From a virus (Duplodnaviria > Heunggongvirae > Uroviricota > Caudoviricetes): 31,209 bases of DNA. Shown here piece after piece: positions 1 through 29,200 of this stretch. The notes beneath the pieces are model-generated. The model saw only the letters and a program-made list of their open reading frames with translations, did not search any database and had not been told where the DNA came from. The DNA is taken from IMG/VR virus record IMGVR_UViG_3300029719_000311, positions 1 through 31,209 of that record; one strand, 5' to 3'. The stretch's first letter is position 1; the number at the start of each line of letters is the position of its first letter. Position numbers and translations under genes: made by a program.

Positions 1-1254
1 ATGCTGGAACAAATGGGCATTGCCGCGAAGCAAGCCTCGTATAAATTAGCGCAACTCTCCAGCCGCGAAAAAAATCGCGTGCTGGAAAAAATCGCCGATG
101 AACTGGAAGCACAAAGCGAAATCATCCTCAACGCTAACGCCCAGGATGTTGCTGACGCGCGAGCCAATGGCCTTAGCGAAGCGATGCTTGACCGTCTGGC
201 ACTGACGCCCGCACGGCTGAAAGGCATTGCCGACGATGTACGTCAGGTGTGCAACCTCGCCGATCCGGTGGGGCAGGTAATCGATGGCGGCGTACTGGAC
301 AGCGGCCTGCGTCTTGAGCGTCGTCGCGTACCGCTGGGGGTTATTGGCGTGATTTATGAAGCGCGCCCGAACGTGACGGTTGATGTCGCTTCGCTGTGCC
401 TGAAAACCGGTAATGCGGTGATCCTGCGCGGTGGCAAAGAAACGTGTCGCACTAACGCTGCAACGGTGGCGGTGATTCAGGACGCCCTGAAATCCTGCGG
501 CTTACCGGCGGGTGCCGTGCAGGCGATTGATAATCCTGACCGTGCGCTGGTCAGTGAAATGCTGCGTATGGATAAATACATCGACATGCTGATCCCGCGT
601 GGTGGCGCTGGTTTGCATAAACTGTGCCGTGAACAGTCGACAATCCCGGTGATCACAGGTGGTATAGGCGTATGCCATATTTACGTTGATGAAAGTGTAG
701 AGATCGCTGAAGCATTAAAAGTGATCGTCAACGCGAAAACTCAGCGTCCGAGCACATGTAATACGGTTGAAACGTTGCTGGTGAATAAAAACATCGCCGA
801 TAGCTTCCTGCCCGCATTAAGCAAACAAATGGCGGAAAGCGGCGTGACATTACACGCAGATGCAGCTGCACTGGCGCAGTTGCAGGCAGGCCCTGCGAAG
901 GTGGTTGCTGTTAAAGCCGAAGAGTATGACGATGAGTTTCTGTCATTAGATTTGAACGTCAAAATCGTCAGCGATCTTGACGATGCCATCGCCCATATTC
1001 GTGAACACGGCACACAACACTCCGATGCGATCCTGACCCGCGATATGCGCAACGCCCAGCGTTTTGTTAACGAAGTGGATTCGTCCGCTGTTTACGTTAA
1101 CGCCTCTACGCGTTTTACCGACGGCGGCCAGTTTGGTCTGGGTGCGGAAGTGGCGGTAAGCACACAAAAACTCCACGCGCGTGGCCCAATGGGGCTGGAA
1201 GCACTGACCACTTACAAGTGGATCGGCATTGGTGATTACACCATTCGTGCGTAA
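1..1254 (+). CDS. proA: gamma-glutamyl phosphate reductase ProA (complete, 417 aa)
   Basis: Full-length ORF whose translation I recognise as enterobacterial ProA; host-like GC-rich codon usage; followed directly by tRNA-Thr as in the proBA-thrW locus. Confidence 0.95.
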
Positions 1255-1368
1255 ATAAAACCGGGTGATGCAAAAGTAGCCATTTGATTCACAAGGCCAT
1301 TGACGCATCGCCCGGTTAGTTTTAACCTTGCCCACCGTGATTCACGTTCGTGAACATGTCCTTTCAGG

Positions 1369-1444
1369 GCCGATATAGCTCAGTTGGTAGAGCAGCGCAT
1401 TCGTAATGCGAAGGTCGTAGGTTCGACTCCTATTATCGGCACCA
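1369..1444 (+). tRNA. thrW: tRNA-Thr (anticodon CGT), thrW-like
   Basis: 76-nt sequence GCCGATATAGCTCAGTTGGTAGAGCAGCGCATTCGTAATGCG...GGTTCGACTCCTATTATCGGCACCA with cloverleaf features: acceptor stem GCCGATA/TATCGGC, anticodon loop TTCGTAA, T-loop GGTTCGA, 3' CCA. Confidence 0.95.
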
Positions 1445-1445
1445 T
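1399..1445. repeat. att core, left copy (3' part of thrW, anticodon loop to 3' end)
   Basis: 47 bp identical to 21863..21909; integrase gene starts 14 bp downstream. Confidence 0.85.
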
Positions 1446-7339: not shown

Positions 7340-8281
7340 ATGAGCACTAAATTAACCGGCTATGTATGGGATGGTTGCGCTGCGTCAGGCATGAAATTAT
7401 CCAGCGTGGCAATTATGGCCCGCCTGGCTGATTTCAGTAATGACGAAGGTGTGTGCTGGCCATCAATTGAAACCATTGCCCGTCAGATTGGCGCGGGGAT
7501 GAGTACCGTCAGAACGGCTATCGCACGGCTGGAAGCAGAAGGCTGGTTAACGCGTAAGGCGCGTCGCCAGGGTAACCGCAATGCGTCGAATGTTTATCAG
7601 CTTAACGTTGCGAAGCTTCAGGCAGCGGCATTTTCTCAACTGTCAGATTCTGACCCGTCAAAATCTGACGCATCAAAATCTGACCCGTCAAAATTTGATG
7701 CGTCGAAATCTGGCAAAAAAGCGGGTTTTCACCCGTCAGAATCTGGCGGGGATCCGTCAGTAAAATCAAAACATGATCCGTCAGATAAAAAAACTTCTCG
7801 TCCGGACGCTTCGCAACCGGACACGCAGACGGCTGAACAGGAGTTTTTAACTCGCCATCCTGATGCGGTTGTATTCAGCCCTAAAAAGCGCCAGTGGGGA
7901 ACGCAGGATGATTTGACCTGCGCACAGTGGCTCTGGAAAAAAATCATCGCCCTGTACGAGCAGGCCGCCGAATGTGACGGCGAGGTGGTTCGTCCCAAAG
8001 AACCGAACTGGACAGCCTGGGCAAACGAAATTCGCCTGATGTGTGTGCAGGATGGTCGTACTCATAAACAAATCTGCGAGATGTACAGCCGCGTCAGTCG
8101 CGATCCGTTCTGGTGCCGTAACGTGCTCAGCCCGTCGAAGCTGCGGGAAAAATGGGATGAGCTTTCCCTGCGCTTATCGCCGTCCGTCAGCACGTACACC
8201 GAAAAACGCGAAGACCCGTACTTCAAAGCCAGTTACGACAACGTGGACTACAGCCAGATCCCGGCAGGATTCAGGGGGTGA
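7340..8281 (+). CDS. Replication initiation protein (lambda O-like role) with origin iterons inside the gene
   Basis: N-terminal winged-helix-like region; central DPSKSDASKSDPSKFDASKS repeats encoded by tandem 15-bp DNA repeats; position after cro/cII-like genes. Confidence 0.7.
   Translation: MSTKLTGYVWDGCAASGMKLSSVAIMARLADFSNDEGVCWPSIETIARQIGAGMSTVRTAIARLEAEGWLTRKARRQGNRNASNVYQLNVAKLQAAAFSQLSDSDPSKSDASKSDPSKFDASKSGKKAGFHPSESGGDPSVKSKHDPSDKKTSRPDASQPDTQTAEQEFLTRHPDAVVFSPKKRQWGTQDDLTCAQWLWKKIIALYEQAAECDGEVVRPKEPNWTAWANEIRLMCVQDGRTHKQICEMYSRVSRDPFWCRNVLSPSKLREKWDELSLRLSPSVSTYTEKREDPYFKASYDNVDYSQIPAGFRG
7640..7793. repeat. Candidate replication origin iterons (5 tandem 15-bp repeats plus 3 spaced copies) with adjacent A-rich tract
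   Basis: Repeats of CCGTCA(A/G)AATCTGA at 15-bp period 7640..7713, further copies at 7731, 7752 and 7777; within the replication initiator gene. Confidence 0.55.
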
Positions 8282-17024: not shown

Positions 17025-20000
17025 ATGGAACCCATATCAATTACAGTGGCAACTTATGTAGCAACTAAACTTATTGATCAATTCATCTCTCAAGAAGGAT
17101 ATGGTTGTATTAAGAAAGCATTATTCCCCCAAAAAAGATATGTGGATAGATTATATCAACTAATTGAAGAGACGGCAATTGAGTTTGAAGAAACATATCC
17201 AGTAGAAAGTGGAGCAATACCATTTTATCATTCCGAACCATTGTTTGAGATGTTGAATGAGCACATCTTTTTTAAAGAGTTCCCTGACAAAGAGATATTA
17301 TTAGACAAGTTCAAAGAATATCCAAGTATCACTCCCCCAACTCAACAACAACTCAGCCTTTTTTATGAGATGTTATCATTAAAAATCAATAATTGTTCGA
17401 AGTTAAAAAAGCTACATATCGAAGAAACGTATAAAGAAAAAATATTCGATATTAATGAAGAGCTCATTCAAGTCAAACTTATTTTACGGTCTATAGATGA
17501 GAAACTAACTTTTCACTTAAGTGATGATTGGTTAAATGAAAAAAATAGTCAAGCAATAGCTGACTTGGGAGGTCGATACACACCCGAACTCAACGTAAAG
17601 CTAGAAATAGCAGAGATATTTGATGGCCTCGGTAGAACTAATGATTTTTCTAAAATATTTTATTCGCATATAGATAGCTTTCTGGTCGCTGGAAAGAAAT
17701 TACATAGTTGCGATGTAATTTCCTCAGAATTATTTGAAATAAACCAGTCCTTAAAAGAAATTTCTGATATATATCAGGAGATTAATTTTTCTAAATTAGA
17801 TGAAATCCCTATAAATAAATTTAATAACTATGTTTCTAGCTGCCAGACAGCTATTGGCGGAGCGGTATCAATATTGTGGGAACTCCGAGAAAAGTCAGAG
17901 CAAGTAGGTGAAACCAAGCATTACAGTGATAAGTATTCATCTACTCTGCGAATGCTTCGGGAATTTGACTATGCGTGCAATGAATTACGTATATTCATTA
18001 ATTCAACAACAGTGAAGTTGGCTAACAACCCATTCTTACTTCTCGAAGGAAAAGCAGGAATTGGTAAGTCTCATTTACTGGCTGATGTGATTAAAAATCG
18101 AATTGCTTCTGGGTATCCTTCACTACTCATACTAGGGCAACAACTTACTTCAGATGAATCTCCATGGTCACAAATCTTCAAGAGATTACAGCTTAAAATC
18201 ACTTCTCGTGAATTCCTAGAAAAACTGAATTTATATGGCAAAAAAACAGGAAAAAGAGTCTTAGTTTTTATTGATGCTATTAATGAAGGTAATGGAAATA
18301 AATTCTGGAATGACAATATTAACAGTTTTGTCGATGAAATCAGATGCTTTGAATGGCTTGGTCTGATAATGTCAGTCAGAACAACATATAGAAATGTAAC
18401 AATTTCACATGAGAATGTTGTGCGAAATAATTTTGAAATTCATGAACATATTGGATTCCAGAACGTTGAGTTGGAAGCGGTTAGTCTATTTTATGATTAT
18501 TACAATATTGAGAGGCCTTCATCTCCTAACCTTAATCCAGAGTTTAAAAATCCTCTATTTCTTAAGTTATTGTGTGAAGGCATTAAGAAAAATGGTTTAA
18601 CCAAAGTGCCTGTTGGATTTAATGGGATTTCAAATATTTTTAACTTTTTAGTTGAAGGGGTAAATAAATCATTAGCATCGCCAAGAAAATATGCATTCGA
18701 TCCCAGTTTTCCTCTTGTTAAAGATGCTCTCAATGAAATCATAAAATTCAAATTAGAGATTGGTCGTAATAGTATTTCACTTAAAGATGCTCACTCAGTG
18801 GTTCAATCTGTAGTTAATGATTATGTTGCTGATAAAACCTTCCTCAGCGCCTTGATTGACGAAGGATTATTGACTAAAGGCATAGTGAGAAATGATGATA
18901 ATTCTACTGAGGAAGTAGTTTATGTGGCTTTTGAAAGGTTTGATGATCATTTAACTGTTAATTTTTTATTAAATGATGTTGAAAATATCGAAAGTGAATT
19001 TAAGCCTGATGGTCGTCTGAAAAAATATTTTCATGATGAATGTGATTTTTATATAAAATCGGGAATAGTAGAGGCGTTGTCTATTCAATTGCCAGAAAGG
19101 TATGAAAAAGAGCTTTATGAATTTCTGCCGGAGTTCAGCAATAATCTTAAATTACTAGAAGCCTTTATTGATAGCTTGATATGGCGCGATATTAAGGCTA
19201 TTGATTTCGAAAAAATTAGACCTTTCATCAATGAACATGTTTTTAAATTTAAAGATAGTTTTGATCATTTCCTCGAGGCAGTGATCTCTATTTCAGGTTT
19301 AGTTGGCCATCCCTTTAATGCTAATTTCTTGCATGATTGGCTAAAAGATTATTCTTTGGCAAATCGAGATTCGTTTTGGACTACAGAACTTAAATATAAA
19401 TATAGTGAAGACTCAGCATTTAGGCATCTAATCGATTGGGCATGGGCCAGAACAGATAAAAGCTTTGTTTCGGATGAGTCAATCGAGCTAGTTGCAACTA
19501 GTTTATGCTGGTTTTTAACTTCTAGTAACCGAGAACTTCGAGATTGCTCAACTAAGGCTTTAGTGAGTTTACTCGAGCCAAGAATTCCTGTATTGAGAAA
19601 AATAATTGATAAGTTTTATGGTGTAAATGATCCTTACGTTTGGGAAAGAATATTTGCAGTTGCATTAGGCTGTACATTGCGAACTGATAATATTAAAGAA
19701 CTAAAATATTTAGCCGAAACTGTTTACCAAAAGGTATTTTGTTCTAAGTATGTGTATCCAAATATATTACTTAGAGATTATGCTAGAGAGATTATTGAAT
19801 TTGCTAATCATCTTGGATTGGAACTTGAAAGCATTGAATTATCCAAGACTAGACCACCCTACAACAGCATTTGGCCTGACAAGATTCCTTCAAAAGAGGA
19901 ACTAGAGTCCCTTTATGATAAAGAACCTTATCGGGAACTCTGGAGCTCTATTATGGAAGATGGTGACTTTTCACGATATACTATTGGAACAAATTATAAT

Positions 20001-21479
20001 CATTCTGATTGGTCTGGTTGCAAGTTTAATGAAACCCCTGTTGACCGTAAGCAAGTTTTTAAAACTTTCAAATGTAAACTAACTGATCAACAAAAAGACT
20101 TGTATGATGCCACAGATCCTTTCATTTATGATGATAAATGCGAAGGAATTAAATTTGGTCGTGTGGTCGGTAGAAAATCACAGGAAGAAATAAAGGCGAG
20201 CAAGAAATTATTTAAGAATTCATTGTCATACGATCTGTTAAGTGAGTTTGAAAATGAAATAGAGCCATACCTGGATCATAATAATAATCTGCTGGAAACT
20301 GATAAACACTTTGATCTTCGACTAGCTCAACAATTTATATTCAATCGTGTTATAGAGCTTGGTTGGGATCCGGAGAAGCATGGTAATTTTGACCAACAAA
20401 TAGGAACTGGACGTGGACGTAGAGAGGCATTCCAAGAACGGATTGGTAAAAAATACCAATGGATTGCTTATTATGAATACATGGCAAGGCTAGCCGATAA
20501 TTTTACTCGTTTTGAAGGTTATGGTGACGAACGAAAGGAAAATCCATACCAAGGGCCATGGGAGCCTTACGTAAGAGATATAGATCCCACTATCTTACTT
20601 AAAGAAACTGGAACGAAAAAAATAAGCAATAAAGAAATGTGGTGGCTTAATGATGAAGTGTTTGATTGGACTTGCTCTAATGAAGACTGGGTTAAAAGTT
20701 CTACTACTATAACTAATTCATATGCTTTTATTGAAGTTAAAGATGATAATGGTGATGAATGGATAGTATTAGAAAGTCATCCATCATGGAAAGAACCAAA
20801 AATTATTGGAAACGATGATTGGGGGCACCCACGAAAAGAGGTTTGGTATCAGATCAGAAGTTATATCGTTAAAGTTGAAGAATTTGAAAATTTTAGATGT
20901 TGGGCAATAGCTCAAGACTTTATGGGCAGGTGGATGCCGGAATGTACTGATAGATACCAATTATTTAATAGGGAGTACTATTGGTCCGAAGCATTTAAGT
21001 CTTTTAAATCAGATTATTATGGTGGATCTGACTGGACTTCGGTAACAGACCGGGAGTCTGGAGCTAAGATAGCTGATGTTAGTGTCACTTCGATTAATTA
21101 TTTGTGGGAAGAGGAGTTCGACAAATCAAAAATAGAAACTTTGAATTTTTTGAAGCCTAGTAACTTAATCTTTGAAAAGATGGGATTAAAAAGTGGGGAA
21201 GTAGAGGGTAGCTTCAATGATGAAAATGGAACTATGGTTTGCTTTGCAGCTGAAGCTGTATATGCTTCAAAGCCGCATCTACTTGTTAAAAAAGAACCAT
21301 TTTTAACAATGTTAAGGGACAATGGTTTTGAAATCGTTTGGACATTATTAGGTGAAAAGGGCGTTATAGGGGGCTCACTCATATCAAGTCATCATTATGG
21401 TCGACAGGAGTTTAGTGGAGCATTTTATTATGAAGACAGTCAGCTAACAGGAAGTCATAAAACTAGCTTTACGAGATAA
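17025..21479 (+). CDS. Large P-loop NTPase with NACHT/STAND-like motifs (1484 aa); candidate antiphage defence protein
   Basis: Walker A GKAGIGKS (18048..18071), Walker B VLVFIDAINEG (18258..18290), downstream IMSVRTT sensor-1-like motif; about 330-aa N-terminal and about 1050-aa C-terminal helical extensions; low GC versus neighbours; located between tfa and attR. Confidence 0.6.
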   Translation: MEPISITVATYVATKLIDQFISQEGYGCIKKALFPQKRYVDRLYQLIEETAIEFEETYPVESGAIPFYHSEPLFEMLNEHIFFKEFPDKEILLDKFKEYPSITPPTQQQLSLFYEMLSLKINNCSKLKKLHIEETYKEKIFDINEELIQVKLILRSIDEKLTFHLSDDWLNEKNSQAIADLGGRYTPELNVKLEIAEIFDGLGRTNDFSKIFYSHIDSFLVAGKKLHSCDVISSELFEINQSLKEISDIYQEINFSKLDEIPINKFNNYVSSCQTAIGGAVSILWELREKSEQVGETKHYSDKYSSTLRMLREFDYACNELRIFINSTTVKLANNPFLLLEGKAGIGKSHLLADVIKNRIASGYPSLLILGQQLTSDESPWSQIFKRLQLKITSREFLEKLNLYGKKTGKRVLVFIDAINEGNGNKFWNDNINSFVDEIRCFEWLGLIMSVRTTYRNVTISHENVVRNNFEIHEHIGFQNVELEAVSLFYDYYNIERPSSPNLNPEFKNPLFLKLLCEGIKKNGLTKVPVGFNGISNIFNFLVEGVNKSLASPRKYAFDPSFPLVKDALNEIIKFKLEIGRNSISLKDAHSVVQSVVNDYVADKTFLSALIDEGLLTKGIVRNDDNSTEEVVYVAFERFDDHLTVNFLLNDVENIESEFKPDGRLKKYFHDECDFYIKSGIVEALSIQLPERYEKELYEFLPEFSNNLKLLEAFIDSLIWRDIKAIDFEKIRPFINEHVFKFKDSFDHFLEAVISISGLVGHPFNANFLHDWLKDYSLANRDSFWTTELKYKYSEDSAFRHLIDWAWARTDKSFVSDESIELVATSLCWFLTSSNRELRDCSTKALVSLLEPRIPVLRKIIDKFYGVNDPYVWERIFAVALGCTLRTDNIKELKYLAETVYQKVFCSKYVYPNILLRDYAREIIEFANHLGLELESIELSKTRPPYNSIWPDKIPSKEELESLYDKEPYRELWSSIMEDGDFSRYTIGTNYNHSDWSGCKFNETPVDRKQVFKTFKCKLTDQQKDLYDATDPFIYDDKCEGIKFGRVVGRKSQEEIKASKKLFKNSLSYDLLSEFENEIEPYLDHNNNLLETDKHFDLRLAQQFIFNRVIELGWDPEKHGNFDQQIGTGRGRREAFQERIGKKYQWIAYYEYMARLADNFTRFEGYGDERKENPYQGPWEPYVRDIDPTILLKETGTKKISNKEMWWLNDEVFDWTCSNEDWVKSSTTITNSYAFIEVKDDNGDEWIVLESHPSWKEPKIIGNDDWGHPRKEVWYQIRSYIVKVEEFENFRCWAIAQDFMGRWMPECTDRYQLFNREYYWSEAFKSFKSDYYGGSDWTSVTDRESGAKIADVSVTSINYLWEEEFDKSKIETLNFLKPSNLIFEKMGLKSGEVEGSFNDENGTMVCFAAEAVYASKPHLLVKKEPFLTMLRDNGFEIVWTLLGEKGVIGGSLISSHHYGRQEFSGAFYYEDSQLTGSHKTSFTR

Positions 21480-21862: not shown

Positions 21863-21909
21863 ATTCGTAATGCGAAGGTCGTAGGTTCGACTCCTATTAT
21901 CGGCACCAT
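21863..21909. repeat. att core, right copy (attR of element 1 / attL of element 2)
   Basis: 47 bp identical to 1399..1445 (partial thrW 3' end ATTCGTAATGCGAAGGTCGTAGGTTCGACTCCTATTATCGGCACCAT). Confidence 0.9.
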
Positions 21910-22072
21910 CACCTAGTTTTCCCAAGTCAACCCACATCAACAAAATCATTTAAAAACATATATATTACGTTGTTTTCATACGTTTGAGGTCAACCCTTGT
22001 CTCTTGAAATCAACACGCGGTTGGGGGCACAATCAGGGGCATGTTCTGTTCGATCTAGGAAATGTGCCCCCA

Positions 22073-23263
22073 ATGATGCTGAATGCCCGCAAGGTTGAAG
22101 CTGCGAAAGGAAAAGAGAAGAGCTACAAGCTGTTTGATGGAGGTGGCCTATACCTTCAGGTCGAACCTAATGGCTCGCGTTACTGGCGTATGAAATACCG
22201 TTTTGCTGGTAAAGAGAAACGATTGTCCTTTGGTGTTTATCCAACAGTCACACTTGCTGATGCCAGACAAAAACGAGAAGACGCGAAGAAACTACTCGCA
22301 GCAGGTGAAGATCCCGGCGAAGTCAAAAAAGCCAAAAAGCAGGCTTTAAATGCAGCGAGTGAGACACTTAACCCATTCAGAGAAGTGGCGTTAGAGTGGC
22401 ACAAAATGAAATCACCCAAATGGTCTGAGGGCTATGCTTCCGACATCATTGAGGCATTCGAGAAAGACATTTTCCCGCATATTGGGCACAGACCTATAGC
22501 TGATATTCAGCCCCTTGAACTGCTTGAAGTTCTGAGGTTGATAGAAGCTCGAGGCGCTATGGAGAAAGCGAAGAAAGTCCGTCAGCGATGCGGTGAAGTT
22601 TTTCGCTATGCCATCGTAACGGGTAGGGCAATCTACAATCCGGCACCGGATCTTGCCAGTGCGATGCAAGGACATGAAGCAGTCCACTATCCATTCCTCA
22701 AAGCCAACGAACTACCGGAGTTCTTTAATGCCCTTAATTCTTATTCAGGAAGTCCAATTGTATTGTTGGGGGCGCATTTACTTATCCTGACAGGTCTACG
22801 AACTGGAGAACTACGAGCAGGTGAGTGGCGAGAGGTGGATTTTGATAATGCGGTGTGGGAGATCCCAAAAGAACGTATGAAAATGCGTAGGAGCCATATT
22901 GTCCCGTTGTCAAAACAAGCATTATCCCATCTCAAAAGTTTGAAAGAACTAACTGGGAACTACCCGCTGATGTTCCCTGGACGCAACGATCCCAGCAAAT
23001 TTATGAGTGAAGCAAGCATTAATCAGGTGTTTAAACGTATTGGATATGCAGGGCGTGTTACGGGGCATGGTTTCAGGCATACGATGAGTACAATCCTACA
23101 TGAGAAAGGATTTAACAGCGCTTGGATTGAAACCCAGCTTGCTCATTCGGACAAAAACTCTATTCGTGGAATTTATAACCATGCCCAATATCTCGAAGGG
23201 AGAAGAGAAATGATGCAATGGTATGCTAATTATTTATCTGAGCAAATTGGTACTCATAAATGA
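22073..23263 (+). CDS. Tyrosine integrase, P4-type
   Basis: ...KEKSYKLFDGGGLYLQVEPNGSRYWRMKYRFAGKEKRLSFGVYPTVTLADARQKREDAKKLL... N-terminal arm-binding pattern of P4-family integrases; C-terminal ...GHGFRHTMSTILHE... catalytic region; true start probably ATG at 22073/22076 rather than ORF start 22004. Confidence 0.9.
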   Translation: MMLNARKVEAAKGKEKSYKLFDGGGLYLQVEPNGSRYWRMKYRFAGKEKRLSFGVYPTVTLADARQKREDAKKLLAAGEDPGEVKKAKKQALNAASETLNPFREVALEWHKMKSPKWSEGYASDIIEAFEKDIFPHIGHRPIADIQPLELLEVLRLIEARGAMEKAKKVRQRCGEVFRYAIVTGRAIYNPAPDLASAMQGHEAVHYPFLKANELPEFFNALNSYSGSPIVLLGAHLLILTGLRTGELRAGEWREVDFDNAVWEIPKERMKMRRSHIVPLSKQALSHLKSLKELTGNYPLMFPGRNDPSKFMSEASINQVFKRIGYAGRVTGHGFRHTMSTILHEKGFNSAWIETQLAHSDKNSIRGIYNHAQYLEGRREMMQWYANYLSEQIGTHK

Positions 23264-24084
23264 ATATTTTAAAAATTAATAATACTGATTCTCTGCTCAG
23301 AGATTACTACCAGTTGGATGAAGCTTCAGAAAAAATTGGTTGTAGTGAAAAGGATATACTCTGGTTTGCCAGAGAACGAGATGTAGAGCTATGCATGGAA
23401 TTCCATGATGATGAGTATGATGTTTCATGTGGTTTGAAGATTGATGGTCAAATAGATGAGTTCTTATCTAATCTGAAATATTTACCACGAGATAGAAATG
23501 GCAATATTATGTTGTCAGACTTAAGTTCTATAAGAATCCCTGATGAAGATAATTTAATTGATAAAAATGGTTTTATTCGATGCTTCATATCCGGTTTATG
23601 GGCTGTTGATTATGAATATAAAGATCTGTTAGTTAAGCATGAGGGGCAACCGGATTCCTGGCCTATTCATTTTCTACTGGCGGGTACGCCTAATATAAAT
23701 TGTAAGGTAATTCTTTATGTAAATTATGATGAAAAAGAAAATTATTATCTTTTTGAGGTTTTGTGGATTACAAAGGTACAGATTCAAAAATTCATTGATA
23801 TAGTCTTATGCGAACAAAAGCGGATAAAAAACGCCAATAAATATAAATCACAATCTGAGGCGCAAAAACAAAAACATGCTGTTCCTCGAGCTGAAATACT
23901 CATGGCTATTATTTCGCTCTATCATCGTGATATGAGGCTAAGAAGAGAGAGTCCAGCAGCGATAGCTGATTATCTTTTTCAACATGCCAGTGAGTTCTGG
24001 CCTAAGACCGGAGAACCGCCTTTGAGCTATGATACTGTTGTTAGTTTGCTACGTAGTTGCATGAAAAACATTAAGTTTAACTAA
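23260..24084 (+). CDS. Hypothetical low-GC cargo protein (274 aa), translationally coupled to integrase
   Basis: ATGA overlap with int stop; strongly AT-rich relative to int; no recognisable motifs. Confidence 0.5.
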   Translation: MNILKINNTDSLLRDYYQLDEASEKIGCSEKDILWFARERDVELCMEFHDDEYDVSCGLKIDGQIDEFLSNLKYLPRDRNGNIMLSDLSSIRIPDEDNLIDKNGFIRCFISGLWAVDYEYKDLLVKHEGQPDSWPIHFLLAGTPNINCKVILYVNYDEKENYYLFEVLWITKVQIQKFIDIVLCEQKRIKNANKYKSQSEAQKQKHAVPRAEILMAIISLYHRDMRLRRESPAAIADYLFQHASEFWPKTGEPPLSYDTVVSLLRSCMKNIKFN

Positions 24085-24209
24085 ATATTAACAATTGTTG
24101 TGGCTAATGATTTTGAATTTTTTTCATTAGTCACATTTTTCTCATTTATAACCTATGTTTTAATTTTCCGTGTTGAAGCCAATAGACTTAGATAAACGGA
24201 GAATGATGA

Positions 24210-24500
24210 ATGTTATCTAAACATGATAATACTACTTTGCAACGACCTTCAATGGATTCTCTGATCGATATGAAGTTTATTACTTCCGATTGTTTATTAA
24301 GTGATAAATGGATTTATCGATTGATTTCTCTGAATCGCTTTCCAAAACCTATAAAAATAGGTCGGATGTCACGATGGCGCGCTGCTGATTATTATAAGTG
24401 GCGAGATGGGTTTGAAGAAAACTCAGGTCAACAGTTTGAGGGGATGAGAAATAAGGCAAGAGCAATTAATAAAGGGAATAGATTATCACCTACTCCCTAA
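24210..24500 (+). CDS. AlpA-family phage regulatory protein (Vis/excisionase-like)
   Basis: ...LISLNRFPKPIKIGRMSRWRAADYYKWRDGF... fits the AlpA pattern (FPKP.K.G..S.W); GGAGA RBS 8 nt upstream. Confidence 0.55.
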   Translation: MLSKHDNTTLQRPSMDSLIDMKFITSDCLLSDKWIYRLISLNRFPKPIKIGRMSRWRAADYYKWRDGFEENSGQQFEGMRNKARAINKGNRLSPTP

Positions 24501-24706
24501 GCCTTAATTGATAGTTAGTAATATTTAACTGATTAGCCTTTAGGGTCAATCCCGCGTGATTGGAGTTCTTTGCGTAAAATTCTTTTAATCCAAGTTGCCA
24601 ACGCGCTATCTCCATCTTTGCGCATTTCGTTTTCGAGTTGCAACCTAAAATCGTCGGTAAGACGCATTTGGAATGGTGGAGAACGTTTCTCTTGTGGTGT
24701 TGACAT
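24491..24706 (-). CDS. Putative Arc/Mnt-like ribbon-helix-helix regulator (71 aa); not in the supplied ORF track
   Basis: Hand-translated minus-strand ORF MSTPQEKRSPPFQMRLTDDFRLQLENEMRKDGDSALATWIKRILRKEL...; PPFQMRLTDD resembles the Arc N-terminal beta-strand; start codon lies within one of two GGTAATTACC palindromes. Confidence 0.4.
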
Positions 24707-24746
24707 GGTAATTACCCTAGAATATGATGACTACATGGTAATTACC
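24707..24746. promoter_or_regulatory. Two 10-bp palindromes GGTAATTACC spaced 30 bp apart (candidate operators)
   Basis: CATGGTAATTACC repeated at 24704..24716 and 24734..24746, overlapping the RHH gene start. Confidence 0.4.
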
Positions 24747-24837
24747 ATTGTAAGTATAGTTCGCTTGTAAAAGCAATGCCCGATTGTGCGGGAACACAAA
24801 TCGGGCATTTAACCAACCGTTATAAGAGGTAACGAAG

Positions 24838-25014
24838 ATGGCTAAACAGAAGTGTACCTGGTTATTTGCGGCGATCAACCGCAGTCAACGCAATGCCCGT
24901 CCTGTGATGTTAAGGATCACCGCAGATAACGAGCGGTCAGCGCGGCGCAGACTTGCCCCGGACTATGTACTGAGCTTTGCCGGGCGCATTCCCTGCGGAG
25001 GTGAACATGCGTAA
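24838..25014 (+). CDS. Small protein (58 aa), Icd-like position in a P4-like element
   Basis: Hand-translated MAKQKCTWLFAAINRSQRNARPVMLRITADNERSARRRLAPDYVLSFAGRIPCGGEHA; AAGAGG RBS; overlaps the next gene start by 8 nt. Confidence 0.4.
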   Translation: MAKQKCTWLFAAINRSQRNARPVMLRITADNERSARRRLAPDYVLSFAGRIPCGGEHA

Positions 25015-25366
25015 TTATCCGCATCCCGGCGAACGCTGGCAGCATGAACGTGGCTGGACGGTCACGATTATCCGATTAATAGAAGCCTCGCCCTCTGTGG
25101 CGCTGGTTAATCCTGAATTCAGCTGTGAAGTGCTGATACGTCATGACAGCGACAACCAGCTTTCTTCCTGCCCTCTGGCATGGTTTGAACAGCGATATAC
25201 GCGCCTGTTTGATGTACCGCTCTTTAAGCCTGCACCAGCTCCTGCAGGCGGTAGTGGTTCCGGCCCGCTGACACTGCATCCGTCTGTGCTATTTATCCGC
25301 TGGCGGGAGCGTAGCATATGGCGTTCTGCTGAGCCTGATGACGGTCACTATTCAAAGTTTCTCTGA
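25007..25366 (+). CDS. Hypothetical protein (119 aa)
   Basis: ATG preceded by GGAGG at 6-nt spacing; GC-rich; function unknown. Confidence 0.45.
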   Translation: MRNYPHPGERWQHERGWTVTIIRLIEASPSVALVNPEFSCEVLIRHDSDNQLSSCPLAWFEQRYTRLFDVPLFKPAPAPAGGSGSGPLTLHPSVLFIRWRERSIWRSAEPDDGHYSKFL

Positions 25367-25602
25367 CACAATACCGCTGAAAACGGAGTAATCCACGATG
25401 AATATTTCAAACGGGCACAACGGTGCTCAGGGCCACACTTTGCCTGAAAAACACAATACCTGCTGCCCTCCACTGATGGCAAACTCCAGACAACCATTCG
25501 CCCGCCAGAGATGAATCCCCGCAGGCTCTATGTCTTCAACAGCGAGGTGCCGGGTTAAGGCTTTGCGTGAGTCTTATTTATTAAGGGTAACAGGTGAAAC
25601 AG

Positions 25603-25958: not shown

Positions 25959-26702
25959 ATGAACAATACCGCAGTAAATAACAACCTTTCCACTTTTCCG
26001 GCTGTAACGCAGCGGGCACTGGAAACCATGAACACAGCCAGAAACGCATGGCTTGAAGCACGTCGTCAGCAGAAAGCGGCAGCGGATAATATTGCGACAA
26101 TCCGCCAGCGTCGCGCTGAAATGGAAGCCACGACGAACACACTGAATGAGGAGTGGCGCACGCTGTTTCGTGAAAGTCAGGGCGTGGTCTCAAAGGAAAT
26201 GAAAAAACTGCGCACGGAAATTGCGCTGGGACGAGAAACGCTTGAGGATTTTGATGAGCTGCTGGCGGCTCAGGAAAGCGAAAATGCACTTTTGCCGCAG
26301 AAAGCTGCAGAATTAGCCGGAAAGTATATCCACGCGCATAACATTCTTGTGGATATTCGCGCAAAACAAATCTGGGAGGATTTTATGCAGTCGCATGGAA
26401 AAGCGCTTATTCAGACGCTGAGCCTGCTTAAATCCACAATGGGCCGGGAAGCCAGTGCCGTTGTGGGTGTGGTGAATTCAGTTAATGACCCGGACACAGT
26501 GCTGAAAGACTTTATTCATAAACATATCACCAGACCGGCTCTGGCTAACGATGCGATGCCTGAGCAGGACCCGGTGTTTAAACTGGCGGGAGTTGCCCCG
26601 GATTATGCGGCGCGTCTGGATTTCAGTAATCAACTCTCTCCGGCAGCTATGCATAAAATTAAGGTTCGTCAGGAACTTGCTGAGAAGGAGAAAGCAGTAT
26701 GA
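25959..26702 (+). CDS. Sid-like capsid size determination protein (247 aa)
   Basis: Helical 247-aa protein (P4 Sid is 244 aa), first gene of the operon ending in an ogr/delta gene; AGGAG RBS. Confidence 0.5.
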   Translation: MNNTAVNNNLSTFPAVTQRALETMNTARNAWLEARRQQKAAADNIATIRQRRAEMEATTNTLNEEWRTLFRESQGVVSKEMKKLRTEIALGRETLEDFDELLAAQESENALLPQKAAELAGKYIHAHNILVDIRAKQIWEDFMQSHGKALIQTLSLLKSTMGREASAVVGVVNSVNDPDTVLKDFIHKHITRPALANDAMPEQDPVFKLAGVAPDYAARLDFSNQLSPAAMHKIKVRQELAEKEKAV

Positions 26703-27250
26703 CGGCCCGAGGCACGCCTGACCAGGCACTTACCAGTTTTCGGAATGCCCGCATTCTGTGGGCCGGACATAATGAGAGCCGAAAAGCCGTTGAACAACAG
26801 ATAACATCTCTCCTCGCTGCCACAGAAAAACCAGCAGATTATGCCCGACAGCTCGAATTACTGCGGGAACGTCTGGATGTGCTGAAATGGCAAATTAACT
26901 GTGCTGCGCGCGAATGCATTTACTCGCAGCATTTACTGATGGAGGCCTGCACAGAAGCCGCTCTCAGCAATTTTATGCAGGCGAATGGGGCAGCCCTGAC
27001 ATCTGCACTGGCTCCGTTCCTGAAGGGGCGCGGAGGGGTTGACGTTGCGTCCCGTATATTACGCAGTGCTCTGGTTCGCCAGCTGGCAATAACACCGCCT
27101 GAAATTGCTGGGGATTATCGTGAGATCCTGGATGAATCCGGTTTGATGCCTGACCCCGGGATGATTCGTGATTGCCAGGGTTCTTACACCCCGGCACAAC
27201 ATCTGCGTTTTCAGCAACGCCTGAATGACATTAACGATATACAGGAGTGA
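26699..27250 (+). CDS. Psu-like polarity suppression protein (183 aa)
   Basis: ATGA coupling to sid-like gene; size and operon position match P4 psu (190 aa). Confidence 0.5.
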   Translation: MTARGTPDQALTSFRNARILWAGHNESRKAVEQQITSLLAATEKPADYARQLELLRERLDVLKWQINCAARECIYSQHLLMEACTEAALSNFMQANGAALTSALAPFLKGRGGVDVASRILRSALVRQLAITPPEIAGDYREILDESGLMPDPGMIRDCQGSYTPAQHLRFQQRLNDINDIQE

Positions 27251-27255
27251 TATTA

Positions 27256-27528
27256 ATGGCACTTAAATGTCCGGAATGCGGTACAGTTGCACACGCCAGA
27301 ACAGCAGCCTATGAAGCTCCGTCAGTTAAACGCTCGTGGTATCAGTGCCAGAATCTGGAATGTTCCTGCACATTTACGGCACTGGAGAGTGTGGATAAGA
27401 TAATCATGAAACCCCGGCGCAATGAACAGGAACCAGACAAATCACAACCCCCGGTAAAACAACAGCAAACGCTCAATCGCTATGGCTCCGCGTCAAAACT
27501 GTCAAGCCGTCAGCAGATTCCTGTCTGA
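27256..27528 (+). CDS. Ogr/Delta-family zinc-finger late transcription activator
   Basis: MALKCPECGTVAHARTAAYEAPSVKRSWYQCQNLECSCTFTALESV matches the Ogr pattern C-P-x-C-x4-HART...Y-x-C-Q-N-x-x-C-S-x-T-F; start at ATG after AGGAG rather than track GTG at 27247. Confidence 0.85.
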   Translation: MALKCPECGTVAHARTAAYEAPSVKRSWYQCQNLECSCTFTALESVDKIIMKPRRNEQEPDKSQPPVKQQQTLNRYGSASKLSSRQQIPV

Positions 27529-27922: not shown

Positions 27923-29200
27923 ATGAACCGTCAGCCGTTTACTTCAGCAGCACTTAAACGAAACTTAAGTGAAAGTGAGAAGGCTTATTATTTTAAAAAA
28001 AATAATGTTGCTGAGTTAGAATCATTAATTAGTGATGCCGTTTTAATTGCTAATGAGAATTTTCGCTCTGGTGTGAGTGTAAAGAAACTAAATATTAAGG
28101 GACGCTGCGTTTACACTGCTTCATGTTTGAAGGAAAAAATAATACTTAGACATTGCAATGCAAATTTAAAATGCCTTGAATCGCTTCGTCCCAAACAACG
28201 AAATACAATAATTAGTGAGCTTAAAATTTATTTGGAAGAAGGTACTCCATTCAAAATATATCGTTTGGATATAAAGTCTTTCTTTGAATCAATTGATTTA
28301 CCGCAGCTTTTTCAGCTCTTACATAACGAAACACGACTGTCTAGACATACAAAAAATTTGCTAGAATGGTATCTTAAATCGTGTGAAAGGCTTCACTCTT
28401 CGAAAGGATTACCTAGAGGGTTAGAAATTAGTCCTATGTTATCAGAATTGTACTTGGCACAATTTGATAATAGTATTCATAGGCATCCAGAAGTATTTTA
28501 TTATTCAAGATTTGTAGATGATATGGTAATCGTTTCAAGTGGTTGTGAATGTGAAGCGTCCTTTATGGAATTTATACAAGATGTATTACCAAAGGGATTG
28601 GCTTTAAATAAAAATAAATTAAAAATATCTCCATGCATACCAAAGAGAAGTAAGGGTTTAAATAAACAGGATAAATTGCTTCATGAATTTGACTTTCTAG
28701 GGTACTCGTTTTCTATAATAGACACACCTTTGAGCAAAGATGGTGAGATTAATAGCTGTTACAGAAAGGTTGTTGTTAATTTATCTAAATCTCGCCTGAA
28801 GAAAATTAAAACAAGAATAGCTAGGTCTTTCTACTCTTATCATATTAATGGTGATTTTAAACTATTGCTAGACAGGATTTCTTTTTTGACTAGTAACAGG
28901 GATTTAAATCGCAAAATAAAATCGTTAAGTTCTTTAGAAAAAAGCAAGATAAGTACAGGTATTTATTACAGTAATGCGAAGTTAGATGTTGACTCCATAT
29001 CCCTAAAAAAATTAGATGACTTTTTGCTATATTGTGTGCAATCTAATACTGGGCGTTTGAATAGTGTTGCAAAAAAACCTTTTAATTTGAAGCAAAAAAA
29101 AGAACTGCTAAGAAATAGTTTTAGAAAAGGCTTTGTGGATAGAGTATATAGAAAGTATAACTTTAAGCGCTATACTGAGATTACAAAAATATGGTTATAA
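27923..29200 (+). CDS. Reverse transcriptase 1 (425 aa), defence-associated RT (UG/Abi-like; DRT3 component by inference)
   Basis: Canonical RT motifs: YRLDIKSFFESID (motif 2), LPRGLEISPMLSELYL (motif 4), FVDD catalytic box at 28511..28522 (motif 5), FDFLGYSF (motif 7); very low GC. Confidence 0.85.
   Translation: MNRQPFTSAALKRNLSESEKAYYFKKNNVAELESLISDAVLIANENFRSGVSVKKLNIKGRCVYTASCLKEKIILRHCNANLKCLESLRPKQRNTIISELKIYLEEGTPFKIYRLDIKSFFESIDLPQLFQLLHNETRLSRHTKNLLEWYLKSCERLHSSKGLPRGLEISPMLSELYLAQFDNSIHRHPEVFYYSRFVDDMVIVSSGCECEASFMEFIQDVLPKGLALNKNKLKISPCIPKRSKGLNKQDKLLHEFDFLGYSFSIIDTPLSKDGEINSCYRKVVVNLSKSRLKKIKTRIARSFYSYHINGDFKLLLDRISFLTSNRDLNRKIKSLSSLEKSKISTGIYYSNAKLDVDSISLKKLDDFLLYCVQSNTGRLNSVAKKPFNLKQKKELLRNSFRKGFVDRVYRKYNFKRYTEITKIWL

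Follow-up and report, generated by a model that had tools for sequence, protein, structure and literature searches.

A conserved, exchangeable gene confined to the interval between integrase and alpA in P4-like satellites: a candidate component of the AlpA/Int switch

What is the role of an AT-rich gene that sits between the integrase gene and the alpA-type regulator of a P4-like satellite? The question is raised by a 31,209-nt stretch of viral DNA (Caudoviricetes; IMG/VR record IMGVR_UViG_3300029719_000311), hereafter the window, whose right-hand part is occupied by such a satellite. The gene, which we label X, is an open reading frame (ORF) of 274 amino acids (aa) on the plus strand at 23260-24084, with an ATG start and a TAA stop. 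An earlier reading of this DNA, the original prediction, had taken it for a second candidate cargo gene of the satellite, translationally coupled to a P4-type integrase. Our analysis indicates that X is a genuine protein gene under purifying selection, kept by an old family in a single slot and yet exchanged between elements, and we tentatively place its function at the adjacent AlpA/Int switch.

The tetranucleotide ATGA joins the stop codon of int to the start codon of X (...ACT CAT AAA TGA), with an overlap of 4 nt. The GC content of X is 34.4% (28.4% at third codon positions, GC3), as compared to 45.6% for int and 50-56% for the downstream icd and sid genes. Both the overlap and the low GC content relative to int had been pointed out in the original prediction and are confirmed here. 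At the base composition of X, a stop codon is expected every 12.5 codons, and the probability of finding 274 open codons is 1.3e-10. The longest open run in 2000 shuffles of X averaged 70 codons and never exceeded 155, and the five alternative frames are open over at most 56 codons. Comparison with the Citrobacter copy (93% aa identity) gave a ratio of nonsynonymous to synonymous substitution rates (dN/dS) of 0.11 at a dS of 0.26. Full-length homologues of 273-277 aa were found in Citrobacter, Pantoea, Erwinia, Yersinia, Salmonella and Enterobacter, and this length is kept across the six genera despite saturated dS. Conservation as a coding sequence, the lack of which would have counted against the original prediction, is therefore established. 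X is present in 66 of 5426 complete E. coli genomes, in single copy and always on the chromosome, and is annotated as 'hypothetical protein' in every listed E. coli record. The exact protein is filed as 'MULTISPECIES hypothetical protein [Enterobacteriaceae]' and occurs on 770 contigs. One could still suspect an ORF in decay or without function, whose frame stays open by chance or through hitch-hiking: X has no known domain, IS1 splits it in two of the 66 carrier E. coli genomes (NZ_CP138407.1 and NZ_CP128592.1), and the satellite of the window is itself defective, its primase having been deleted. The low dN/dS, the constant length in six genera, the probability of about 1e-10 for a chance frame and a confident AlphaFold model (pLDDT 91) together refute this explanation, to which we give practically no credit.

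The neighbourhood of X could be read in 11 loci (window/Shigella, Citrobacter, three Pantoea, Erwinia, two Salmonella types and three metagenomic contigs). A P4-type integrase gene ends -4 to +96 nt upstream of X in 11/11 loci, and within -4 to +4 nt in eight of them; X is physically coupled to a P4-type integrase gene. In the window, int (22073..23263 (+)) encodes 396 aa from its ATG, its frame being open from a TTG at 22004, and RefSeq annotates the corresponding 1191-nt version. The protein matches the Pfam families Arm-DNA-bind_3 (9e-28), Phage_int_M (4e-35) and Phage_integrase (1e-25). On the other side, all 11 loci have a small gene that begins 103-126 nt beyond X and matches Phage_AlpA best in Pfam, and the downstream gene was AlpA-like in 8/8 other loci tested. 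The window version, at 24210..24500 (+), encodes an AlpA/Vis-like small regulator of 96 aa (Phage_AlpA, 4e-4; PHROG excisionase/transcriptional regulator). An upstream ORF fragment also abuts X in three further short contigs. The int-X-alpA order is kept in P4-like elements with sid/psu/delta, in D5-primase elements resembling phage-inducible chromosomal islands (PICIs) and in elements bearing a P2 capsid gene, and the triad persists where Int is only 29-31% identical. The remainder of these elements varies: primases are of DUF927 or D5 type, sid/psu/delta and a P2-type capsid gene may be present or absent, and the defence cargo at the far end changes. X was never seen outside the int-alpA slot in the loci with readable neighbours, phage and plasmid records gave no tblastn match to it (E <= 1e-3), and a scan of species-representative genomes returned only 3 X loci. 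We conclude that the X family is ancient in the int-alpA slot and confined there.

Within this fixed position, X alleles have been exchanged. Two Pantoea elements share 93% identity in Int, 75% in X and 78% in AlpA. The window and a metagenomic locus (L015) share 84% identity in Int and 66% in AlpA, and 77% nucleotide identity in the Arc/promoter region, whereas their X proteins are only 27% identical. Nucleotide similarity between the two ends at the 3' end of int (23231) and returns at codon 15 of alpA (24253), which indicates that X, the terminator and the alpA leader were exchanged as a cassette between homologous backbones. No complete E. coli genome carries the second X type, that of L015. 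The interval between int and alpA thus has the look of a second variable slot of these elements and, judging from the sequences, X seems to evolve in the manner of an immunity region. X itself is an exchangeable, non-core accessory gene in a variable slot, and not a recognisable defence gene.

The exchanged segment extends over the X-alpA spacer. In the window, an inverted repeat, TGTGGCTAATGA-N13-TCATTAGTCACA, is followed by a T-rich run (24099..24147 (+)) and forms a terminator-like end of the int-X unit; it is possibly also a protein-binding site. A hairpin and T-run lie directly 3' of X in every locus, with a different sequence in distant loci. Across genera the hairpin arms are nearly invariant and the loop is free, and a compensatory pair change occurs in one Pantoea locus (L004). 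The dyad of close Enterobacterales reads GTGrCTAAT-N13-17-TTAGTCAC, the window form being GTGGCTAAT-N13-TTAGTCAC. The constant position of the hairpin and T-run after X fits an int-X transcription unit that closes before alpA. It is followed by a conserved alpA leader (24160..24209 (+), alignment A3), made of the block TTTTCCGTrTTGAAGCCArTAGAC and the Shine-Dalgarno sequence ACGGAGAA. The TTTTCCGT sequence in the block can pair with this Shine-Dalgarno sequence, and in one Pantoea a T-to-C change makes the pairing perfect. Across genera, the 125-nt spacer is better conserved than the coding DNA on either side of it (alignment A3), and within the close Enterobacterales group its conservation is striking. 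This conservation and the potential pairing suggest that alpA is controlled at the level of translation or through an operator. Ahead of X, at its 5' side, no Shine-Dalgarno sequence precedes the ATG in the window; together with the overlap with the int stop codon, this means that X is probably made by termination-reinitiation. The geometry of the junction thus points to translational coupling of int and X, and co-expression of X with Int appears likely.

The predicted structure of X provides further indications. The AlphaFold model, built from a 31-sequence alignment (pLDDT 90.8, pTM 0.70), starts with a winged-helix N-domain of the MerR/excisionase-like type (residues 15-48; 23302..23403 (+)), which has a beta-alpha-alpha-beta arrangement and is acidic, with a mean net charge of -2. 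It is followed by a strongly acidic alpha/beta insert (residues 49-171; 23404..23772 (+)), the part most variable in sequence and length (alignment A2): per-block conservation is 0.47-0.79 in the insert versus 0.8-0.97 at the ends, and its length varies from 107 to 221 residues across the family. The most conserved part (residues 172-270; 23773..24069 (+)) consists of a single helix of 52 residues (172-223), modelled with pLDDT above 90, and a small helical C-domain (224-270). The family motif is ERHAxxRExVLMAAI...FWPxxGxPPLSxDxIxxLL, and R210, A216 and P254 are invariant in alignment A4. The protein is acidic overall (pI 5.4), and its only basic stretch is formed by residues 186-206 (pI 10.4). 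Neither a catalytic signature nor a membrane segment was detected in X, which we describe as a non-enzymatic, acidic protein. In the model its layout is loosely MerR-like, and X is probably dimeric. The conserved ends and variable middle fit an adaptor or a sensor.

Searches with X in Pfam, NCBIfam, PHROGs, PADLOC, PDB and BFVD gave no match. The 5027 models of PADLOC-DB returned 0 families for X; in the same window, Avs2 scored 1752 bits and DRT3a and DRT3b 436 and 676 bits, respectively. None of the 31 members of alignment A2 matched Pfam at E <= 0.01. When scanned alone, the N- and C-domains gave nothing significant, with one match of the N-domain to MerR_1 at E 0.15. Nothing significant was found with PDB sequence profiles either (alignments A1, A2 and A4), and matches to Fab heavy chains (E 0.09-2.6) were taken as chance. 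A profile search with the C-domain recovered only fragments of the X family and no other domain architecture. Neighbouring genes, unlike X, match the Psu-like, Ogr/Delta, AlpA and integrase families. X has no homology to the P4 core families int, psu, delta, sid, alpA, epsilon/ash and alpha in Pfam or PHROG. Two relationships were rejected. X is not DUF6387 (PF19924): it has no Pfam match, and hhalign of alignment A2 with the DUF6387 protein of an E. coli thrW satellite (L012), which itself matches PF19924 at 3.7e-38, gave a probability of 0.09. It is not an AlpA homologue, since hhalign with the window AlpA gave a probability of 0.14 and no HTH_17 or Phage_AlpA match was obtained. The family is small, with 18 clusters in a search of 5.8 billion proteins and 44 clusters at E <= 1e-3 among 1.84 billion representative proteins; its real members have about 230-375 aa and one architecture. 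No literature mention of the X RefSeq accession was found, and for DUF6387 only gene-table mentions were found. The original prediction had described the ORF as without recognisable motif, which holds at the sequence level in Pfam, PADLOC, PHROGs, NCBIfam and PDB sequences, and had named homology to a core P4 gene as a finding that would overturn it; none was seen. It had also called for remote-homology and structure prediction, of which the former was negative and the latter gave a confident model.

We tentatively favour, at less than even odds, a role of X as an integrase-operon binding or sensor protein that acts on the adjacent AlpA/Int switch. As second cistron of a candidate unit running from Pint through int and X to the hairpin and T-run, X would be made in a low and fixed proportion to Int as long as the satellite is integrated. 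Its two conserved end domains would dock on conserved parts of the switch, either the alpA control region, AlpA or Int, and the middle domain, itself variable, would recognise a partner that also varies, a phage protein being the most plausible one. Docking and reading together could act as a gate on AlpA-dependent induction and excision; both the partner of X and its regulatory output are proposals. For Gram-negative PICIs, published work leaves open whether there is a global repressor and by which route the helper activates alpA (PMC6092414, PMC11773190), and a LuxR regulator beside alpA is essential for excision of a PIME (bioRxiv 10.64898/2026.01.12.698999). X might be the helper-sensing component of Gram-negative satellites, a functional counterpart of the Stl repressor of Staphylococcus aureus pathogenicity islands (SaPIs) that would be constitutive with Int and hold AlpA off; we consider this narrower proposal rather unlikely. 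AlpA would then be held off by protein contacts or via the co-exchanged dyad and leader, and released when the hypervariable middle domain binds a specific helper-phage protein. If this were true, divergent X alleles would define helper specificity types of P4-like and PICI-like satellites. X is in any case a concrete candidate, and one cheap to test, for a part in the silencing of Gram-negative satellites and the activation of alpA by a helper, although the present evidence is that of an orphan accessory gene only.

Several observations weigh against a role of X in the switch. The putative recognition helix, C-[ED]-x-[ED]-D-[IL]-L-H-W, is without basic residues in most members. Together with the acidity of the winged helix, this makes classical DNA binding by X doubtful, and the idea of a classical DNA-binding helix-turn-helix (HTH) repressor is weakened by it. 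The element has other control devices, namely an Arc-like gene with two probable palindromic operators and P4-style leader repeats. The IS1 insertions mentioned above interrupt the gene in natural carriers. X keeps a GC content of about 34-35% in Pantoea and Erwinia hosts of 55-58% GC, as cargo would, and in a distant contig of 57% GC it is still 12 points under int. In E. coli, thrW satellites with an int of about 70% DNA identity have, at the position of X, either a DUF6387 gene (293 aa; L012 10631-11512, between int and alpA) or a 430-nt non-coding gap (L013, L014). In Klebsiella, the island ICEKp258.2 likewise has DUF6387 beside AlpA (PMC10763509). The gap-type elements include a PICI shown by experiment to be functional, EcCIMP1 (PMC11773190), which has a related thrW integrase and no X between int and alpA. 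EcCIMP1 induces alpA and excises (PMC11773190), so that X must be dispensable for the basic cycle. Finally, identities across 55 locus pairs correlate well between int and alpA (Spearman 0.82) and poorly between int and X (0.35) or alpA and X (0.45), a weak co-variation that speaks against a tight partnership.

The same co-variation bears on the possibility that X is an integrase cofactor, that is, a large directionality or architectural factor acting on Int or attachment site (att) DNA to bias integration versus excision. Its likely translational coupling to int in most loci would suit a stoichiometric partner, and the fold class of the N-domain is the winged helix of the Xis/AlpA/Vis directionality factors. 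However, the known directionality factors of tyrosine integrases are far smaller than X. Moreover, an Int 84% identical tolerates an X 27% identical, so there is no co-evolution (Spearman 0.35 for int and X), and the winged helix of X is acidic. An AlpA/Vis-type factor is already present next door, and X-less relatives excise normally (PMC11773190). A cofactor role is in our view improbable.

Dispensability and low GC content would be expected for cargo, and the position of X has to be considered in this respect. The canonical P4 order is int-[hotspot]-psu-delta-sid-alpA-epsilon-alpha (PMC8628076, PMC10085698), and int and the psu-delta-sid operon flank the classical P4 hotspot (PMC9122126, PMC8628076, PMC13586616). 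The int-to-regulator slot has been described as an accessory region for PICIs and PIMEs, not for P4 (PMC10085698; bioRxiv 10.64898/2026.01.12.698999). X lies between int and alpA, not toward psu-delta-sid, and does not have the location of P4 hotspot genes; it agrees with the PICI/PIME accessory region, being non-core, placed between int and an alpA-type regulator, and variable in content among relatives. Given the order int-X-alpA-arc-icd-...-sid-psu-delta-DRT3, the classical hotspot is at the element's other end, from 27923 onward. The original prediction had assigned the ORF to the variable region near int in which accessory genes of P4-like satellites reside: the slot is indeed variable, but the classical hotspot is the far end, with DRT3. 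As to turnover, alleles are swapped and slot occupants vary, yet the X family is found only in the int-alpA slot. Of the proposed second cargo gene, the non-core, accessory character stands; the family appears to behave unlike fast-turnover cargo, the gene being slot-confined even where Int is 29-31% identical.

X may nevertheless be cargo expressed in the lysogen, riding the constitutive int transcript and providing non-enzymatic phage exclusion or defence, or exclusion of competing satellites. It would then act like P2 Tin, binding a phage protein in stoichiometric amounts and poisoning it. Its GC content is low whatever the host GC (34%, GC3 28%), like that of Avs2 and DRT3 in the window, and the corresponding accessory region holds a restriction-modification system in a PIME (PMC10085698; bioRxiv 10.64898/2026.01.12.698999). 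The slot is occupied in turn by type 1 X, by the 27%-identical X allele, by DUF6387 or by nothing; the middle domain of X is the most variable, as in sensors; X does not evolve in pace with Int and AlpA, as if its partner were external and changing; and X is dispensable, as seen from the IS1 insertions and the functional X-less relatives (PMC11773190). However, none of the 5027 PADLOC models recognises X, which has no enzymatic or membrane domain, and the family, with its 44 clusters among 1.84 billion representatives, is tiny. X was not seen outside the int-alpA slot and has no match in the phage or plasmid records, whereas defence genes usually roam between contexts with a turnover independent of core genes (PMC13586616). 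A triad maintained down to 29% Int identity looks ancestral rather than like a recent insertion. Because X is confined to one slot, we treat cargo or defence as one of two live readings, a possible one and not the one we favour. If X proved to be a binding-type exclusion protein, it would represent a new family, and the int-alpA slot a second place to mine beside the hotspot.

The layout of the window is as follows. The thrW gene, tRNA-Thr(CGT), is located at 1369-1444 and is followed by a prophage remnant (1459 to ~16500) with tail J, lom and tail-fibre genes. A minus-strand ORF abutting thrW (1459-2622) is presumably the integrase gene of this remnant. The Avs2 gene (17025-21479; 1484 aa, 33% GC) comes next, and a second copy of the thrW 3' end at 21863..21910 (+) constitutes the left att copy of the satellite. 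This assignment is based on alignment of the window from 21863 onward to a Shigella locus (L018) from its position 7604, overlapping the stretch that matches window 1-1445 and ends in thrW; most E. coli genomes align to the att-copy stretch at their tRNA-Thr. The thrW site of the window is therefore occupied in tandem by the prophage remnant, Avs2, the att copy and the satellite. The same satellite lies directly at thrW in Shigella flexneri SFBU0723 (CP182557), and E. coli XJW9B277 (NZ_CP068041) has a different gene, hypothetical and of 1083 aa, in the place of Avs2.

The satellite genes are all co-directional except a small Arc-like gene. After int as first cistron, X as second (23260..24084 (+)) and alpA come the Arc-like gene (24533-24706 (-), 57 aa), an icd-like gene (24838-25014), an ORF of 119 aa (25007-25366), a sid-like gene (25959-26702), psu (26699-27250), ogr/delta (27247-27528), DRT3a (27923-29200) and DRT3b (29191 to the window end, where it is cut). 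The position of DRT3a/b after ogr/delta is the real defence hotspot of the element; Pantoea and Erwinia relatives have SMC/AAA-type or P4 cII-like genes there. At 25456-25460 the window lacks 3168 bp that are present in the E. coli XJW9B277, Shigella and Citrobacter copies and hold a 94-aa ORF, DUF5375 and a TOPRIM/DUF927 primase (alpha); the junction overlap is 5 nt. The window copy of the satellite is probably replication-defective. The Arc-like protein is the best conserved of the module, with 86-91% identity to Pantoea and Erwinia. Its gene starts within a divergent control region, in which a promoter close to the consensus (TTGACA-17-TATGAT, 24700-24728) is accompanied by ACATGGTAATTACC in duplicate (24703-24716 and 24733-24746); both copies include the palindrome ATGGTAATTACCAT and are probably operators of the early operon. 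Ahead of icd, the leader (24767-24906) includes a perfect hairpin, AATGCCCGATT...AATCGGGCATT (24775-24809), and GCAATGCCCG occurs in it twice (24772-24782 and 24889-24899). This leader is reminiscent of the seqA/B/C RNA immunity of P4; Rfam gave only a sub-threshold symR match on this leader (31.6 bits, gathering score 61).

How does X compare with known systems? With P2 tin and old and P4 gop-beta-cII it shares an AT-rich, non-core nature and a location near int in a P2/P4-type element. Tin acts by binding rather than catalysis, and X possibly does likewise. The P2/P4 exclusion genes have no homology to X, and they occupy classical hotspots holding unrelated systems, as opposed to the int-alpA slot of X. 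X resembles AlpA, P4 Vis and excisionases (HTH_17) in the fold class of its N-domain and in its neighbourhood, on the 3' side of a P4-type int. These factors have about 60-100 aa, whereas X is three to four times larger and matches no Phage_AlpA or HTH_17 profile; a bona fide AlpA-like gene is, in addition, always found beside X. DUF6387 proteins are, like X, of about 290 aa and occupy the same int-to-alpA position in a related thrW satellite, but show no relationship to X at the profile level.

In the AlphaFold model, X loosely recalls the MerR family by its N-terminal winged helix, a long helix that could form an antiparallel coiled-coil dimer, and a domain at the C-terminus. It differs by an alpha/beta insert of about 120 residues between the winged helix and the long helix and by its acidic recognition helix, and the MerR profile is not recognised in X. 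Regulators of the MerR and AlpA types are those depicted for Gram-negative PICIs (PMC6092414, Fig. 1 legend), most of which lack X. The Stl/Rpr master repressors of Gram-positive PICIs (SaPIs) show no sequence or fold match to X. For Stl, DNA binding and repression are proven, and its gene is divergent from the early operon, whereas X is co-directional with alpA, follows int and has an acidic winged helix. The likeness lies in the combination of an N-terminal HTH-type domain with a divergent part, proposed in X to bind the partner, and in the highly divergent alleles found between otherwise similar islands, with the reading of a phage protein, described for Stl (PMC6092414), being proposed for X.

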